DNA from: Candidatus Saccharimonadales bacterium
GTDB taxonomy: Bacteria; Patescibacteriota; Saccharimonadia; QS-5-54-17
DNA: 64,000 bases
Assembly (NCBI GenBank): GCA_040876925.1
Contig: JBBDOS010000005.1
Location: 40,815-104,814, forward strand
Reading direction: 5' to 3'
The notes beneath the pieces are model-generated. The model saw nothing but the letters and a program-made list of their open reading frames with translations, ran no database searches and had not been told where the DNA came from. Positions 13,131 to 31,149 of this stretch are shown one piece after another. The first letter of the stretch is position 1. Every line of letters starts with the position of its first letter. Made by a program: the position numbers and the translations under genes.

Positions 13131-13207
13131 TGGAGGGCCTGGTGGGATTCGAACCCACGACACGCGGCTTAAGAGGCCGCTGCTCTAACCAACTGAGCTA
13201 CAGGCCC
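13131..13207 (-). tRNA. tRNA-Lys (anticodon CUU)
   Basis: Reverse complement GGGCCTGTAGCTCAGTTGGTTAGAGCAGCGGCCTCTTAAGCCGCGTGTCGTGGGTTCGAATCCCACCAGGCCCTCCA. Anticodon loop CTCTTAA. Confidence 0.85.
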
Positions 13208-13253
13208 ATGAACTCTTAAGGTCATGAACTAAGATATTGTACCAGATTTACTC

Positions 13254-13330
13254 TGGCGCCCCGGGTAGGATTCGAACCTACGACACCTGGTTCCGAAGAC
13301 CAGTGCTCTAATCCACTGAGCTACCGGGGC
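13254..13330 (-). tRNA. tRNA-Arg (anticodon UCG)
   Basis: Reverse complement GCCCCGGTAGCTCAGTGGATTAGAGCACTGGTCTTCGGAACCAGGTGTCGTAGGTTCGAATCCTACCCGGGGCGCCA. Anticodon loop CTTCGGA. Confidence 0.82.
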
Positions 13331-15605: not shown

Positions 15606-15680
15606 TGGGGTGCCTGAAGGGAATTGAACCCTCGTCACCGCCGCCACAAGGCGGAGCTTTACCATTAAGCTACAGGCACC
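15606..15680 (-). tRNA. tRNA-His (anticodon GUG) with genome-encoded G-1
   Basis: Reverse complement G-GTGCCTGTAGCTTAATGGTAAAGCTCCGCCTTGTGGCGGCGGTGACGAGGGTTCAATTCCCTTCAGGCACCCCA. Anticodon loop TTGTGGC. The extra 5' G pairs with discriminator C73. Confidence 0.85.
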
Positions 15681-16162
15681 ATAAATCCCTCTGACTCATT
15701 ATTATAGTTATGTACTAGAAAATGGCAATTGTGACATAGCCATATCAGGTTTGATATCTTGTTATTGTCCCTGTTTCTATCTTTGTGGTGCACCGCTAAC
15801 ACCCTACTATCCACACACTCGCACCTTAAACACTCCCTGGGAGTATTGGTTCTAGTTAGAATATTTCTATACGAGGCTTTGCCGCCACTCCAATTAAAGT
15901 GATTCTTTCCGGAATATATAGCCTTGTTCCTCCATAGAGTTTGGCAAGATTTGCTGCAAAAAAAGTTACCGCTTTTAGACCTATTCTGGTCCTTGATACT
16001 TCTATACACAGTTTTATTGCACATATAACAAGTAACGTCTTTACCGGTCCTCTGAGCTCTATATTGACAATTCTTTGAGCAGTACTTACCCCAACCTTTT
16101 TTTATATGGCTTGGCTTAGCATAAAACATTTTATTACAAAACAAATATCCGGTTTTGGGCAT
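15665..16162 (-). CDS. HNH endonuclease with an N-terminal Cys-rich zinc-finger-like region, embedded between tRNA genes
   Basis: HHKDRNRDNNKISNLIWLCHNCH HNH motif. Multiple CxxC pairs. The 3' end overlaps the tRNA-His 5' region by 16 nt. Confidence 0.75.
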   Translation of the reverse strand: MPKTGYLFCNKMFYAKPSHIKKGWGKYCSKNCQYRAQRTGKDVTCYMCNKTVYRSIKDQNRSKSGNFFCSKSCQTLWRNKAIYSGKNHFNWSGGKASYRNILTRTNTPRECLRCECVDSRVLAVHHKDRNRDNNKISNLIWLCHNCHFLVHNYNNESEGFMVPVA

Positions 16163-16194
16163 ATTTAGGCTTCACTTTCTATCATAGTTAACAT

Positions 16195-16271
16195 TGGCAC
16201 CCCGGGCAGGATTCGAACCTGCGACCTGCGGATTAGAAGACCGCTGCTCTATCCAACTGAGCTACCGGGGC
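16195..16271 (-). tRNA. tRNA-Arg (anticodon UCU)
   Basis: Reverse complement GCCCCGGTAGCTCAGTTGGATAGAGCAGCGGTCTTCTAATCCGCAGGTCGCAGGTTCGAATCCTGCCCGGGGTGCCA. Strongly resembles argU-type tRNA. Confidence 0.82.
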
Positions 16272-16306
16272 ATATATAATTTATTGTTTTAGTTTTTGAT
16301 GCTATT

Positions 16307-16381
16307 TGGTGCGGGTGGAGGGAGTCGAACCCTCGTCTTCAGCTTGGAAGGCTGACATAATAGCCATTATACGACACCCGC
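16307..16381 (-). tRNA. tRNA-Gly (anticodon UCC)
   Basis: Reverse complement GCGGGTGTCGTATAATGGCTATTATGTCAGCCTTCCAAGCTGAAGACGAGGGTTCGACTCCCTCCACCCGCACCA. Anticodon loop CTTCCAA. Confidence 0.82.
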
Positions 16382-24208: not shown

Positions 24209-26113
24209 ATGTTTAGCGTTTTTAGAAACCCATTTAATCCACTAGTAACTCCCAGTACTAGGCAACCTTGGCGTAATCTATCAGCTTTTAACCCATCGCC
24301 TGTGGTTACAGATAATAAGCACTACCTAATCTACCGCGGCATGGCTAAAGAGTCCTACTATCATGGCCATCGACTGGAGATATCAACCATTGGTATATGC
24401 GATAGCCCAGATGGTAATGAGTACGACAATCACCGCCAATTAATAGTGCCTGAGGAGTCCTGGGAAAAATTTGGTATTGAAGACCCTAGAGTAACCAAGA
24501 TAGATGATACTTACTACATCTTCTATACCGCTATATCTGAATTTCCCTTTGGAGCTAGTGGCATTAAAGTAGCCGTAGCTTTAAGTGATGATTTAGAAAC
24601 CATTAAAGAACGGCACCTAGTAACGCCATTTAACGCTAAAGCTATGGCCCTATTTCCAGATAGAGTAAATGGCAAGCTTTGTGCCATACTCACCATCCAT
24701 AGCGATATGCCGCCAGCTAGAATAGCCATTGCCTATTTCGATAAGCCAGAAGACATTTGGGATCCCAAATACTGGGAAAAGTGGTATGCCAACCTTGAAA
24801 GTCACTGCGTAGATCTAATTTATGAGGAAGATGATCATGCTGAAGTAGGTGCACCGCCACTATTAACTGATGAAGGGTGGTTACTAGTTTATTCTCATAT
24901 CCAAAACTACTTTAGCGAGGATAAAATATTTAGTATTAAAGCAGTCTTACTAGATAAAGATGATCCGACTAAATTCATCGCTAGAACTAGGTATCCATTC
25001 ATGATACCTCAAGAAAACTACGAACGATATGGCTATATAGATAATATTATCTTCCCTTCAGGAGCAGCTATAGAGGGAGAAGATTTAAGTATCTACTATG
25101 GTGGTGCCGATACAATCTGTGCTAACGCTAAGATCAATCTTAAAAGACTACTAAAAGAGCTGATCAATCCCGATCATGAACATGTCAAAAGATACGAAGG
25201 CAACCCAATTATGGCTCCAGTGCGAGAGCATCCATGGGAATCCAAGTACGTCCTGAATCCAACAGCTATAGATTTAGATGGTAAAGCGCACATACTCTAT
25301 AGGGCGATTGATCAACATTACACATCAACTATCGGCTACGGCTCTTCTAAGAACGGTCTATCTATCGATGAGAGACTGGATAAACCGATATATGTACCTC
25401 GCATAAGAGCAGAGATAAACCAGTCTGAGTCAGATGGGAACTCAGGCTGTGAAGATGCCCGGATAGTAGAGATTGATAATAGGCTATATATCACCTACAC
25501 CGCCTACAACGGAGTAGATATGCCCCATGTAGCTATTAGCTCCATCGGTAAGGATGAGTTCTTAAATCATCAATGGGATAGGTGGAGCAAGCCACAAATC
25601 ATATCCCCTAAAGAAGTGGATGATAAAGATGCGGCTTTATTTCCGGAAAAGATTAATGATAAATATGTCATTTTACATAGGATTGATAGACATGTCTGTA
25701 TTGATTACGTAGATACTTTGGATTTCTCTAAAGAAAAGTTAGTTAGGTGTATCCAGGTCTTGGGTCCTAGAAGAGGTATGTGGGATAGCCAAAAAGTTGG
25801 TATTAACGGTTCACCAATTAAAACAGATAAGGGCTGGTTGATGTTCTATCATGGTATCAATAAAGACAATGCTTATTGCATGGGTGCTATATTATTAGAC
25901 CTTGAAGATCCAACTATAACGCTGGGGCGTAGCGCTCAGCCAATTATGGAGCCAGTAGCGGACTATGAGAAGAATGGCTGGGTAAATAACGTAGTTTTCT
26001 CCTGTGGACAGATAGTTAGAGACGATACTATCTATATATATTACGGTGGGGCCGATAGTGTAGTTTGTGTAGCTACTATACCATTAGATCTAGTGCTAGA
26101 TGGGTTGAGTTAG
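24209..26113 (+). CDS. Two-domain GH130-family protein, paralog of the upstream gene
   Basis: Two GH130-like repeats: ...EDPRVTKIDDTYYIFYTAIS... and NPIMAPVREHPWESKYVLNPTAIDLDGKAHILYRAID...GYGSSKNGLS...CEDARIVEIDNRLYITYTAYNG. Shared C-terminal YYGGGD/YYGGAD motifs with the upstream protein. Confidence 0.6.
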   Translation: MFSVFRNPFNPLVTPSTRQPWRNLSAFNPSPVVTDNKHYLIYRGMAKESYYHGHRLEISTIGICDSPDGNEYDNHRQLIVPEESWEKFGIEDPRVTKIDDTYYIFYTAISEFPFGASGIKVAVALSDDLETIKERHLVTPFNAKAMALFPDRVNGKLCAILTIHSDMPPARIAIAYFDKPEDIWDPKYWEKWYANLESHCVDLIYEEDDHAEVGAPPLLTDEGWLLVYSHIQNYFSEDKIFSIKAVLLDKDDPTKFIARTRYPFMIPQENYERYGYIDNIIFPSGAAIEGEDLSIYYGGADTICANAKINLKRLLKELINPDHEHVKRYEGNPIMAPVREHPWESKYVLNPTAIDLDGKAHILYRAIDQHYTSTIGYGSSKNGLSIDERLDKPIYVPRIRAEINQSESDGNSGCEDARIVEIDNRLYITYTAYNGVDMPHVAISSIGKDEFLNHQWDRWSKPQIISPKEVDDKDAALFPEKINDKYVILHRIDRHVCIDYVDTLDFSKEKLVRCIQVLGPRRGMWDSQKVGINGSPIKTDKGWLMFYHGINKDNAYCMGAILLDLEDPTITLGRSAQPIMEPVADYEKNGWVNNVVFSCGQIVRDDTIYIYYGGADSVVCVATIPLDLVLDGLS

Positions 26114-26136: not shown

Positions 26137-27225
26137 TCACAGAGTTTCACCCAAATCTTCTAATAAATTCTTTTGTTTACGAGATAAGCGCTTAGGTACA
26201 GCCACTGTCACATTAACTAAATGATCACCCCTGCTACTGATACTGCCACCGCGCGGTACACCCCTACCACTGAGCTTAAAGACCTGCCCGCTTTGAGTGC
26301 CTGATGGTATCTTCATCTTAGTCTTACCGTCTACGGTATTAACATCTATTTCTGTACCTAGTGCAGCCTCCACTATATTAATAGTGGCATTAGATAAGAT
26401 GTCATGTCCGCGCCGAGAAAATTCACGGCTAGGTCTGACATTAACGTGTACATAAAGATCACCTTTGGGACCCTTAGCTATAGCCTCACCTCTACCTGAG
26501 ACCCTTAATGTAGCTCCATCATTAATCCCAGCTGGTACTTTAATTTTAATATCTTGCTTAGCCCTCTTGGTACCTTTACCACCACAGTTACTACAAGCTT
26601 TTTCTGGAATCTCTCCTAGCCCATGGCACTTACTGCAAATGCTTCTATGTTGGATACTACCGAGTATAGTGTTTTGTACCTGCACCACCTGACCGCTGCC
26701 ATTACAGTTATCGCAAGTCTTCATACTACTGCCAGGTTCTGCCATTTTACCTTCACAAGTAGGACAGATATCTTCTAGGTCTAGATTGATGGTTTTCTCT
26801 ACGCCAAATATAGACTCCTTAAAGTCTATAGCTACACTTGTCTCTACGTCTCTACCTTTCTGTGTTCTAGCCGATCTGCTACGCCTACCTCCACCACCAA
26901 AAAAACTCCCAAATATATCGCCTAAATCATCTAGATCAATATCAAACTGCTGCCCTCCACCGAAACCGCCCTGGAATGGACCATAACCCCCACCACCAGT
27001 GCTTTGAGCTGATTGGTAGGCATTGTGGCCAAACTGATCATATTGTTGACGCTTATCAGGACTTTTCAGTGTCTCATAGGCTTGAGAGATTTCCTTAAAC
27101 TTGACTTCATCCCCGCCCTCTTTATCGGGGTGATACTTAACAGCCAGCTTGCGGTACGCGCGTTTAATCTCCTCACTAGAGGCATTTTTAGAAACTCCTA
27201 GTACTTCATAGTAATCACGTGCCAC
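26137..27225 (-). CDS. dnaJ: Chaperone DnaJ
   Basis: J domain DYYEVLGV...HPDK. Gly-rich linker. Four CxxCxGxG zinc-finger repeats. Confidence 0.92.
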
Positions 27226-27241
27226 AAATTACACCCTTTAA

Positions 27242-29218
27242 CTATTGCTTATCTTCGTTTTTATCTTTGCCCTCACCCTCATCATCAACTACTTCACCTT
27301 CAACAGGCCCATCGCTACCACTCTCTCCGGGTTCAACTTCACTCTTGGTTTTATCAGCTTCTTCGGCCGCTTCTTTAGCGACATCTTCGTGTAGCTTAGT
27401 ACCGATTGGTTGAACTTTTTCCAACAATTCAGTAGCTGTTTTCTCTAATACTTCCTTATCATCGGACTCTACATTCTCTTGAGCTGACTTAATAGCCTCT
27501 TCAACAGTCTGCTTATCTTCATCACTGAGCTTATCTTCATTGTCTTTAACCATCTTTTCAGCTGTATAGATAGCAGTATCTAGCTGGTTCTTAGCTTCAG
27601 CACGTTCACGCTTCTTCTTATCCTCATCAGCATGAACTTCAGCATCTTTTTGCATCTGCTCAACATCTTTCTCATCCAAGTTACCGCTATTTTCAATAGT
27701 GATTGATTGCTCTTTACCGCTAGCTTTATCAACCGCCTTAACGCTCAAGATACCGTTAGCATCAATATTGAAAGTTACCTCTACCTGAGGTACTCCGCGA
27801 GGTGCCGGTGGTATGCCATCTAGTATGAATCTACCTAGAGACTTATTATCAGCTGCCATCTCACGCTCACCTTGCAAGACATTGATCTCTACTGATGGTT
27901 GATTATCAGCCGCAGTCGAAAACACTTGAGTCTTACTAGTAGGTATAGTGGTGTTTCTCTCAATTAGTTTAGTTGATATACCACCCTCTGTTTCCAGTCC
28001 TAGGGACAAAGGAGTAACATCAAGCAATAAGACATCCTTAACATCTCCTGATAGTACTCCGCCTTGAATAGCAGCACCAAGAGCAACTACCTCGTCTGGA
28101 TTAACTCCCTTAAGCGGATCTTTACCAAAGATTTCTTTAACCTTAGCCTGTACTGCTGGCATACGAGTCATACCACCAACCAAGACCACTTCATCTATAT
28201 CTGAAGCTGATAACCCAGCATCTTTAAGGGCTTTTTCGCAAGGACCCTTAGTCTTATCTATCAACTCTGAGGAAAGTTTATCTAACTCAGAACGAGTAAG
28301 CTTGTGTTCGAAGTGTTTAGGTCCATCACTATCTGCTGTAATGAATGGCAAACTAATATCGGTTTCATTGGTAGTAGATAGCTCTATCTTAGCTTTCTCA
28401 GCTGCTTCTTTTAGTCGCTGCAAGGCAGCTTTATCTTTGCTCAAGTCTACGCCCTCTTGTTTCTTGAACTCATCAACTAGGTGGTTCATTAACTTAAGAT
28501 CGAAATCTTCACCACCCAAGTGAGTATCACCGTTAGTAGATTTAACCTCAAAGACTCCATCACCTAACTCTAGTATAGAAACATCAAAAGTTCCTCCACC
28601 TAGGTCGTAAACAGCAATTTTCTCTTCCTTTTTCTCGTCTAGACCATAAGCAAGAGCAGCTGCAGTTGGTTCGTTAATAATTCGCTTAACCTCAAGACCA
28701 GCAATCTTACCGGCATCTTTAGTTGCCTGGCGCTGCGAGTCATCAAAGTAGGCTGGTACAGTAATAACTACTTCAGTTATCTTCTCGCCTGCATACTCTT
28801 CAGCATCAGCCTTTAGCTTTGCTAGGATCATAGCCGATATCTCTTCCGGAGAGTGATCTTTATCGCCCATTTTAACCTTGACACCACCATTGGCCTTCTT
28901 TATCTCATATGGCATTAGGTTAAGATCCTTTTGCACTTCCTTATCTTCGAATTTACGGCCGATTAGACGCTTAACTCCATAGATTGTGTTTTCTGAATTA
29001 ACAACCGCTTGACGTTTGGCTACCTGGCCAGCTAGTCTTTCTTTGTTCTTATTAACAGCTACTACACTAGGTGTAGTTCTATTACCCTCAGAGTTAGCGA
29101 TGATAGCGGCACTGCCGCCCTCCATAATTGCCATGGCTGAGTTAGTTGTTCCTAGATCGATTCCTAAAATTTTACTCATATTATTTACTCCTTTCGTTAT
29201 TATTATGATTTTCTTCAA
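27242..29218 (-). CDS. dnaK: Chaperone DnaK (Hsp70). The true start is probably at [14 protein letters not shown] (about 29179).
   Basis: [26 protein letters not shown] signatures. Confidence 0.93.
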
Positions 29219-29750
29219 TATCTTTACTACCTTGGTTGCTGCTTTTTTCTACTTTACCCACTTTGACCATACTAGGACGCAAAACCTCATCATCTAGTTT
29301 GTATCCAGGTCTTAACTCCTCTATAACAACTTCATGACTGCCGCCACCATCTTCAAAGCCTATAGCTTCATGTAGGTTAGGATTGAATTCAGATCCTAGT
29401 GCTTCTATCCTCTTGATACCCATATCATCCATTTTGCCTTGTAGCTGTTTATATACCTGCACTAAACCTTTAGTCCAGGAGCTGCCTGCTATATCCTTAG
29501 GCATAGAACTAAAAGCTCTTTCTAGATCATCAAATACCGGTAATAGCTCCTGGATAACTTCTGATTTTGCAGCACTCATCAACATAGATCTATCAATTTC
29601 GACTCGACGCTTATAGTTCATAAAGTCAGCCCGCTCACGTCTAACATCTTCTCTCAATTCAGCTACTTGAGCCGTAAGATCAGACACCTTAGACTGCTTA
29701 CTCTTGCTAGTAGATCTTGAGTTGGTTGGCTTTTGTTTTTTATCTGGCAC
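29181..29750 (-). CDS. grpE: Nucleotide exchange factor GrpE
   Basis: 189 aa. Coiled-coil N-terminus and C-terminal beta domain. Position between hrcA and dnaK. Confidence 0.85.
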
Positions 29751-29763
29751 TTACTATTACTCC

Positions 29764-30471
29764 TTATTCTACTTCTTTTAATAATTCTTCTAACGTATTG
29801 GCGGTATGTTCAACTATCCTCATCACCTGTCCATAACTTTGACGAGTTGGACCAATTACTCCTATATAGCTAGCTTTTGAGTAAGGCGAATCGTAACCAG
29901 TCACTATTACTGAACAGCCACTAGATTTACCCACTGTGTTTTCTTCACCTATATAGGTAGCTACGCTATCTTCTATATTGGTTTCACTCAACCACAACTC
30001 TAGGTTGTCTAATAAACCGGCTATTTCTACAGCATTCTCATCAAATTCTGGTTTGGTGAAAAGTTGAGAAAAGCCTTTGGTATATATAGCCTCACCCATA
30101 GTAGCAAAAGCTACGTTATTAGTAGTAGCTACTAATGAATCAGCGGCTATTTTAATAGCTGCCTGAGGCGATCCAGCACTTGATATCCGTTGAGTTATAG
30201 CTTTCCTAATACGGTTAGTGCTATCTAGCTTATGGCCAGGTACTACTTGTGCCTCTACATAATACCTATATCCAGCATCGGTAGGTATTCTACCAGCGCT
30301 AGTATGTGGATGGGTAATTAAACCTTCATCCTCTAATGTAACCATTTCAGCTCTGATAGTGGCTGAGGATACGCCAAATTGACGCGCCAAAGCTAAAGAT
30401 CCGACTGGATTAGCTGTTTGGACATAATATTCCACAATGGTTTTTAGTATCTCTGATTGTCTAGAGGTCAT
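29764..30471 (-). CDS. hrcA: Heat-inducible transcription repressor HrcA (short form)
   Basis: N-terminal winged helix RQSEILKTIVEYYVQTANPVGS. Sits downstream of the CIRCE operators. Heads the grpE-dnaK-dnaJ operon. Confidence 0.8.
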   Translation of the reverse strand: MTSRQSEILKTIVEYYVQTANPVGSLALARQFGVSSATIRAEMVTLEDEGLITHPHTSAGRIPTDAGYRYYVEAQVVPGHKLDSTNRIRKAITQRISSAGSPQAAIKIAADSLVATTNNVAFATMGEAIYTKGFSQLFTKPEFDENAVEIAGLLDNLELWLSETNIEDSVATYIGEENTVGKSSGCSVIVTGYDSPYSKASYIGVIGPTRQSYGQVMRIVEHTANTLEELLKEVE

Positions 30472-30490
30472 AGCTATTACCCTTAAAATA

Positions 30491-30517
30491 TTGGCACTAA
30501 ATATTAAAGAGTGCCAA
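30491..30517. promoter_or_regulatory. CIRCE-like operator variant (TTGGCACTA-N9-GAGTGCCAA)
   Basis: Inverted repeat with 9-bp spacer. 8/9 arm match to its own reverse complement. One substitution versus CIRCE consensus TTAGCACTC-N9-GAGTGCTAA. Confidence 0.6.
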
Positions 30518-30536
30518 CTCTATTTATAATATGGTT

Positions 30537-30563
30537 TTAGCACTCAACAGTCAAGAGTGCTAA
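30537..30563. promoter_or_regulatory. CIRCE operator, perfect consensus TTAGCACTC-N9-GAGTGCTAA (HrcA binding site). The minus-strand promoter likely lies between the two CIRCE copies.
   Basis: ttagcactcaacagtcaagagtgctaa. About 70 bp upstream of the hrcA start on the coding strand. Confidence 0.85.
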
Positions 30564-30570
30564 TTGGTTT

Positions 30571-31149
30571 TTATTGATTAATTGTTTTAGCTATTATCGC
30601 CTCTATGTCGCTAACGGCCTTTTCCGGATGATTATCAGGGTTAATAACCTGATAATCAAACTGATTTTTACCGATATCAACCTCATAATCGACTCTACCT
30701 AACCGCTTAGCTATCTGCTGCTTAGTTTCACTGTGTCTTGAGTTTAGACGACTCTTTAGCGCCTCAACATTTGGTGGCATGATAAATATCAAGACTACTC
30801 TTTCAGAAAAAGCTTGCTTAACCTGCAGCGCACCATCTACTTCCATAACTGTGCAGATACTCTTGTCGCTGCTAATAGCTTCTTCCAGCTGCTTCTTAGA
30901 AGTGCCATAAAACTCACCAGCAAACTCTACATATTCTATCAACTCACCTTCCTCTAGCAGCTTCGGGAAATCATCTTTTGGCGTATTGAAAAAGTAATCT
31001 ACTCCATCAATCTCTCCATCTCTAGGACTACGGGTAGTATAGTTAATCGGCCTTTGAAAATCAGGGTGGTTTTTAAGAATAGTTTTTAAAATAGTATTTT
31101 TACCTACACCACTAGGACCAGCTAAGATGAAAATATTGGGTTTATCCAT
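30571..31149 (-). CDS. gmk: Guanylate kinase
   Basis: P-loop GPSGVGKNT; NYTTRSPRDGEIDGVDYFF. Confidence 0.88.
   Translation of the reverse strand: MDKPNIFILAGPSGVGKNTILKTILKNHPDFQRPINYTTRSPRDGEIDGVDYFFNTPKDDFPKLLEEGELIEYVEFAGEFYGTSKKQLEEAISSDKSICTVMEVDGALQVKQAFSERVVLIFIMPPNVEALKSRLNSRHSETKQQIAKRLGRVDYEVDIGKNQFDYQVINPDNHPEKAVSDIEAIIAKTINQ

Follow-up and report, generated by a model that had tools for sequence, protein, structure and literature searches.

In Bacillus subtilis the hrcA-grpE-dnaK-dnaJ operon has one CIRCE, positioned downstream of the -10 element and the transcription start. In actinomycetes dnaK is under the control of HspR/HAIR. The CIRCE consensus and its role have been described (PMC545781, PMC13435591). 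Arrangements with two CIRCEs are also on record. [quoted passage not shown] A literature search on HrcA and CIRCE in Saccharibacteria or Patescibacteria found no relevant paper, and almost none of the transcriptional regulation of Saccharibacteria has been characterised. The locus described here is a compact version of the known dual-CIRCE design, in a phylum for which no report of such a layout was found.

The window, the whole 64,000-nucleotide stretch of Candidatus Saccharimonadales DNA that was analysed, has a GC content of approximately 40%. It contains an hrcA-grpE-dnaK-dnaJ operon with intergenic gaps of 13 nt (hrcA/grpE), 1 nt (from the grpE stop to dnaK) and 16 nt (dnaK/dnaJ). The genes of this region, in the order of the coding strand, are:

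gmk, 30571-31149, minus strand: 5' neighbour of the operon
hrcA, 29764..30471, minus strand: short form of 235 aa, with Pfam PF03444 and PF01628 above the Pfam cut-offs
grpE, 29181..29750, minus strand: Pfam PF01025, E = 2.9e-38
dnaK, 27242..29179, minus strand: start taken at the ATG at 29179
dnaJ, 26137..27225, minus strand: Pfam PF00226, PF00684 and PF01556

The dnaJ gene is the last of the operon and the next gene is convergent. A motif search of the window for groES/EL, clpP, hsp20 and lon found none of these, leaving the dnaK operon alone. The first-pass annotation had called it the only chaperone operon visible, and this was borne out, as the window holds no other chaperone gene or CIRCE. 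No CIRCE was found inside the operon, so that dnaK has none of its own.

The gene convergent with dnaJ (24209-26113, plus strand) encodes a 634-aa protein with two stretches matching glycoside hydrolase family 130 (mannoside phosphorylase), and it resembles a tandem-domain GH130. An Rfam scan of the whole window predicted 11 tRNA genes, located between 7483 and 52851 and including clusters at 13134-13330 and 15609-16381. The same scan placed no family in the intergenic region upstream of hrcA.

The gmk-hrcA gap is 99 bp. It was searched, with the rest of the window, using the CIRCE consensus TTAGCACTC-N9-GAGTGCTAA with 18 scored positions. Two elements were found by this consensus search:

O1, 30537..30563, minus strand: perfect CIRCE, 0/18 mismatches, 9-bp spacer
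O2, 30491..30517, minus strand: variant CIRCE, 3/18 mismatches, 9-bp spacer

On the plus strand O1 reads TTAGCACTC-aacagtcaa-GAGTGCTAA (30537-30563) and O2 reads TTGGCACTA-aatattaaa-GAGTGCCAA (30491-30517). On the coding strand O1 is TTAGCACTC-ttgactgtt-GAGTGCTAA (30563-30537), with the spacer TTGACTGTT, and O2 is TTGGCACTC-tttaatatt-TAGTGCCAA (30517-30491), with the spacer TTTAATATT. O1 starts 7 nt past the gmk stop codon and 92 nt 5' of the hrcA ATG. O2 is located 46 nt 5' of the ATG and falls at the 5' end of the transcript as predicted below. The two are separated by a gap of 19 bp (30518-30536). The order along the coding strand is therefore the gmk stop, 7 nt, O1, AACCATATTATAAATAGAG, O2, TATTTTAAGGGTAATAGCT and the hrcA ATG. 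The first-pass annotation had reported two tandem CIRCEs upstream of hrcA-grpE-dnaK-dnaJ, and its coordinates, its distinction of a perfect from a variant copy and its 19-bp gap were all confirmed.

With up to 3 mismatches allowed, O1 and O2 were the only two matches in the 64-kb window compared to 0.04 expected. Two matches were seen in 0/100 dinucleotide-preserving shuffles of the window. In a scan of the window extended to 6 mismatches the next-best CIRCE-like sites had 5-6, and the core GCACTC-N9-GAGTGC with fewer than 2 mismatches was found nowhere else in it. It is scarcely credible that these repeats arose as palindromes by chance or serve gmk as its intrinsic terminator. O1 does begin 7 nt after the gmk stop and could form a 9-bp hairpin, but two matches 19 bp apart stand against the chance expectation of 0.04, no T-run follows either stem (O1 is followed by AACCAT) and a terminator scan gave no site in 30472-30570. 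The exact CIRCE consensus is also kept before hrcA or dnaK across hundreds of genomes. Both readings are effectively refuted by the match statistics, the terminator scan and this conservation.

A promoter scan of the gmk-hrcA gap returned one strong match, TTGACT-N17-TATTAT, agreeing at 10/12 positions. The predicted signals are:

Predicted -35 TTGACT, 30549..30554, minus strand: occupies bases 1-6 of the 9-bp O1 spacer
Predicted -10 TATTAT, 30526..30531, minus strand: in the 19-bp gap between O1 and O2
Predicted transcription start, 30519..30521, minus strand: purines 5-7 nt after the -10
Shine-Dalgarno-like AAGGG, 30480..30484, minus strand: 8 nt before the hrcA ATG, a plausible ribosome-binding site

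Both operators thus lie before hrcA-grpE-dnaK-dnaJ, over the predicted -35 and +1. O2 begins approximately 2 nt past the predicted start and spans about +2 to +28. The location of the -35 within O1 had been overlooked by the first-pass annotation. Its proposal of a TATAAA/TATAAT -10 between the operators on the coding strand was right as to place, since TATTAT lies there. It did not hold for the hexamers named, as TATAAT belongs to the non-coding plus strand and TATAAA is 20 bp from the -35. Two other promoters were considered and rejected. For TATAAT at 30525-30530 as a plus-strand -10 there is no acceptable -35, and the promoter scan reported no such promoter. If TTGGCA of O2 is taken as a -35, it lacks a -10.

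The reading preferred here, and considered likely, is that O1 and O2 are HrcA operators sandwiching the sigma-70-type promoter of an autoregulated hrcA-grpE-dnaK-dnaJ operon. The cognate repressor is encoded by the first gene of that operon. As the spacer of O1 encloses the -35, an HrcA dimer bound to O1 would mask this hexamer and should block its contact with sigma region 4. HrcA on O2 would occupy about +2 to +28, DNA that RNA polymerase needs for open-complex formation and promoter escape. Either operator alone would be expected to repress, and both together would lower basal expression and sharpen induction. On accumulation of unfolded proteins HrcA activity would be lost and both sites would clear. 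The operon, hrcA included, would then be transcribed, closing a negative feedback loop. In Bacillus the loss of HrcA activity occurs through titration of GroEL. The Bacillus HrcA/CIRCE work on which this mechanism is partly modelled is reportedly that of Zuber and Schumann in 1994. Binding by HrcA, the position of the start and the stress signal are proposed by analogy with the HrcA/CIRCE systems of Bacillus, Lactococcus and Mycobacterium (PMC13435591, PMC4585701, PMC545781). O2, with its 3 mismatches, is probably the weaker site, since in the groESL CIRCE of L. lactis one substitution in an arm is enough for derepression exceeding 2-fold (PMC4585701). The result is a concrete promoter model (-35, -10, start and two operators) for the main chaperone operon of a Saccharibacteria genome.

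The window shares with the B. subtilis hrcA-grpE-dnaK-dnaJ operon the operator consensus, the hrcA-first gene order (autoregulation) and the vegetative sigma-70/sigma-A promoter type. It differs in having two CIRCEs, the first of which encloses the -35, and in its repressor of 235 aa, which is approximately 100 aa shorter. It is closer to the L. lactis / Streptococcus type, in which two CIRCEs are likewise found at the hrcA-grpE-dnaK promoter, the first towards the -35 and the second immediately past the -10 or start. A Streptococcus-like contig (L208) encodes a full-length HrcA of 344 aa and has two near-perfect CIRCEs 83 bp apart. These flank a separate TTGACA-N17-TATAAT promoter, and the first CIRCE also has TTGACA in its spacer. 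In the window, by comparison, the operators lie at a distance of 46 bp, and the only good promoter match is the one with its -35 in the O1 spacer. With Streptomyces groES1 and groEL2 the window has in common two GCACTC-N9-GAGTGC repeats in one promoter region. The Streptomyces pair controls groE genes, whereas the dual arrangement in the survey described below tracks dnaK and was found at none of the groES/groEL promoters surveyed. The mechanism follows the textbook HrcA/CIRCE circuit, so that the gain in concept is modest. What modest interest there is comes from regularities at the level of the clade and from the shortened repressor, the circuit itself being ordinary.

Conservation was first assessed in close relatives with HrcA identities of 67-96%, whose gmk-hrcA spacers were aligned (alignment A2). 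The gene order gmk-hrcA-grpE-dnaK-dnaJ was common to eight loci in this identity range. O1, the -35 and the -10 were kept in 9/9 relatives and O2 in 7/9. The block GCACTC-TTGAC-N4-GAGTGC was invariant in 9/9. A -10-like hexamer was present at the matching distance as TATTAT, TATGAT, TAAGAT or TACCAT. Variants of O2 in the relatives included CTAGCACTC...TAGTGCTAG and TTGGCACTG...CAGTGCCAA. O2 was degenerate or absent in L086 and L087, both of which keep the operon. In the closest relative, L084 (HrcA 96% identical), O2 has a spacer of 8 nt, TTGGCACTC-tttaatgt-TAGTGCCAA (L084:2437-2462), and a 14-nt insertion lies between O2 and the ribosome-binding site. These two features are due either to genuine microevolution of O2 or to an error in the assembly. 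The suggestion of the first-pass annotation that the variant copy is under selection is supported by the retention of O2 in seven of the nine relatives and by its recurrence, with an unchanged offset, at dnaK promoters of many Saccharibacteria.

Two of the relatives carry an additional gene within the operon. A 134-aa ORF with no Pfam match is inserted between grpE and dnaK in one (L081:4273-4677), and a NUDIX hydrolase gene is inserted between dnaK and dnaJ in the other (L083:6207-6599).

The wider occurrence of the design was examined in 39 Saccharibacteria loci picked by HrcA protein similarity alone. The hrcA-proximal CIRCE had a -35-like TTG(A/C)N in its spacer in 33/39 of these compared to 4/19 loci from other phyla. 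The motif occupied register 1, 2 or 4 of the Saccharibacteria spacers. A dnaK located apart from hrcA, under a promoter of its own with the O1/O2 design, is found in many Saccharibacteria. To this was added a metagenome scan with TAGCACTCTTGACNNNNGAGTGCTA, which, pooled with other loci, gave 140 non-redundant O1-type sites, mostly from CPR bacteria. An O1-type site was defined as a CIRCE with TTGAC in its spacer, and a second CIRCE was scored if it had no more than 4 mismatches and lay 30-90 bp downstream of O1. In this convenience sample, which is biased by the choice of loci by HrcA similarity or by the exact O1 pattern, a second CIRCE was found downstream at the following promoters:

dnaK promoters: 28/36
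hrcA promoters: 13/54
clpP promoters: 0/8
groES promoters: 0/4
hsp20 promoters: 0/4
Zn-ribbon ORF promoters: 0/4
clpB promoters: 0/3

In the mirror-image control, 30-90 bp upstream, a second CIRCE was found at 0/140 sites (approximately 0.04 expected by chance). At the dnaK promoters the second CIRCE lay 45-50 bp downstream. Over all dual promoters the O1-O2 offset clustered at 45 bp (8 sites), 46 (15), 47 (11) and 48 (5), the window having 46. With the start set 7 nt after the -10, O2 began 1-5 nt past it in the 41 dual promoters, and 1-3 nt past it in 38 of them. All dual hrcA promoters with enough flanking sequence (11/11) were followed on the same strand by a dnaK without its own CIRCE. 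Among 26 single-operator hrcA promoters, 14 had dnaK in the operon, 6 had a dnaK with its own CIRCE and 6 had no dnaK nearby. The difference in dnaK co-transcription (11/11 compared to 14/26) was significant (Fisher p = 0.0066). Dual hrcA promoters occurred only with dnaK in the operon, indicating that the second operator goes together with transcription of dnaK. In Saccharibacteria it is attached specifically to dnaK-driving promoters, and here dnaK sits in the hrcA operon with the dual promoter in front of hrcA. At groESL promoters in the loci examined, from mixed or unassigned phyla, a single CIRCE was present in 8/8. The clade pattern would mean that these reduced genomes keep dnaK under HrcA control that is tighter than, or tuned differently from, that of their other CIRCE genes. 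The sequence rule of an O1 with TTGAC in its spacer and an O2 at +45 to +48 could serve to annotate promoters in CPR metagenomes.

O1-type CIRCEs were also observed on metagenome contigs (L089-L208) before clpP, clpB, hsp20, groES and a small FmdB-like zinc-ribbon ORF (PTYEYxCxxC...). These positions suggest that the HrcA regulon of CPR and related bacteria may be broader than the classical dnaK/groE pair. The hrcA genes of Saccharibacteria loci L003-L035 mostly had a single CIRCE 45-50 nt before the ATG, with the -35 in the spacer. The start predicted from this layout falls only a few nt from the ATG, which implies leaderless or very short-leader hrcA mRNAs. In three Peribacteria / Peregrinibacteria dnaK promoters (L033, L037 and L040) it was a TATAAT-like -10, not a -35, that lay inside the CIRCE spacer, with CTTGAC approximately 9 nt upstream of the operator. 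The single-CIRCE CPR promoters of Saccharibacteria hrcA and Peregrinibacteria dnaK thus share with the window a core promoter hexamer in the operator spacer. They have one operator, while the window and the separate Saccharibacteria dnaK promoters add a second at the start.

The survey also bears on whether O2 has a present function. O2 could be a decaying duplicate with little or no role here, regulation being left to O1 alone. It has 3 mismatches where O1 has 0, and mean mismatches across the survey were 2.6 for second operators and 0.5 for first operators, the latter value being biased by site selection. The loss or degeneration of O2 in L086 and L087 despite the same operon, and its 8-nt spacer in L084, would also fit decay. 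Set against this are the fixed offset of 45-48 bp, held even in lineages with HrcA only approximately 50% identical, and the occurrence of O2 at 28 of the 36 dnaK promoters, with no instance in the mirror-image control upstream. Its core bases are invariant and its tie to dnaK-driving promoters is non-random (p = 0.0066). Decay is on balance improbable.

The 41 second operators were compared position by position. G4, C5, A6, T22, G23, C24 and A26 were invariant or nearly so. Pair 7/21 was non-Watson-Crick in 20/41 copies and pair 9/19 in 14/41. Positions 3 and 25 varied independently (G/T 20, A/T 10, G/C 7, A/C 4). Base identity is kept and pairing is often broken, which points to O2 as a DNA site read by a protein. 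In the window O2 has the G3:C25 pair, is asymmetric at 9/19 and has T at position 19. This T, rare among second operators (3/41), is its one departure from their clade profile. The first-pass annotation had read the G/C change as compensatory. This wording fits the window copy as a description alone, and even there O2 is asymmetric at 9/19. The claim was not upheld, since positions 3 and 25 show no co-variation in the 41 copies and G3 and C25 are common tolerated CIRCE variants. Elsewhere, TTgGCACTC...GAGTGCcAA occurs commonly and is accepted as a CIRCE variant (PMC545781, Table 8).

The same data bear on the reading that O1 is the sole real operator and O2 a 5'-terminal mRNA stem-loop that sets stability or translation without binding HrcA. 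The predicted 5' UTR folds into a 9-bp O2 hairpin with an MFE of -14.5 kcal/mol, and in 38 of the 41 dual promoters the predicted 5' end is 1-3 nt away from the beginning of O2. The 8-nt spacer in L084 shifts the half-site spacing and keeps the stem. Stem-loops at the 5' end of an mRNA protect against 5'-end-dependent RNases, and an effect of CIRCE on mRNA stability in B. subtilis was reportedly described by Yuan and Wong in 1995. The fold was, however, not significantly better than that of shuffled sequences (z = -1.37), 19/200 of which folded as well. The 41 copies lack a compensatory pattern and have an invariant GCA...TGC identity, and nearly all keep the exact CIRCE half-site and the 9-bp spacer. 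A purely RNA-level O2 is therefore judged very unlikely. O2 may have an additional RNA-level role, as the extreme 5' position of the hairpin and the 8-nt spacer in L084 suggest.

For O1 and O2 as a pair of HrcA operators, the spacing was also considered. The centres of O1 and O2 are 46 bp (4.38 helical turns) apart, and the range in relatives is 45-48 bp (4.29-4.57 turns). Spacing near an integral number of turns was thus found neither in the window nor in the relatives. Cooperative binding, which the first-pass annotation had proposed, is unsupported, as the operators are not helically phased. That two sites give tighter repression is a reasonable inference. The spacing of 45-48 bp would be set by landmarks of the promoter, O1 being anchored to the -35 and O2 to the +1, and not by helical phase.

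The HrcA of the window comprises a winged-helix domain and the C-terminal part of the HrcA domain. Residues 2-77 align to residues 16-101 of Thermotoga maritima HrcA (1STZ), with E = 4.9e-12 in the protein search and 1.7e-24 in the profile search. In a MAFFT alignment with eight long HrcAs one contiguous block was missing, corresponding to long-form residues 125-227 (approximately 100 aa), with the gap placed after residue 124. An HMM built from the eight long HrcAs gave the same division. Residues 1-124 matched profile positions 1-124 and the C-terminal part matched positions from about 228 to 339. We take the missing block to be the inserted dimerizing domain, the main dimer interface of T. 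maritima HrcA. This name was reportedly given by Liu and colleagues in 2005, with the 1STZ structure, to a domain inserted within the C-terminal GAF-like domain. An AlphaFold2 model based on a 22-sequence alignment had a mean pLDDT of 55, with values below 50 over most of the C-terminal domain. The loss of the block was counted against the dual-operator reading, as it bears on the stoichiometry of HrcA binding.

Homologues 51-96% identical to this HrcA were all approximately 230-245 aa, the named ones belonging to Candidatus Saccharimonadales / Saccharibacteria, which places the window in a TM7/CPR genome. The hrcA ORFs in the CPR survey encoded 217-245 aa. Saccharibacteria and other CPR bacteria with an HrcA of 217-245 aa might use a minimal HrcA without the dimer interface, with the two-operator design at dnaK promoters compensating for weak dimerization or single-site affinity, for example if four winged-helix domains assembled on one promoter with the DNA as template. 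This is considered unlikely, and a tie between the loss of the block and the two-operator design is speculation. If true, it would amount to a distinct mode of HrcA repression and not a duplicated site. The window protein scored 189.3 bits against TIGR00331, below the whole-protein cut-off of 197.2 bits, and matched in two stretches, the first covering profile positions 1-125. Some close homologues are named at NCBI just as "HTH domain-containing protein", which is consistent with a TIGR00331 score below the cut-off.
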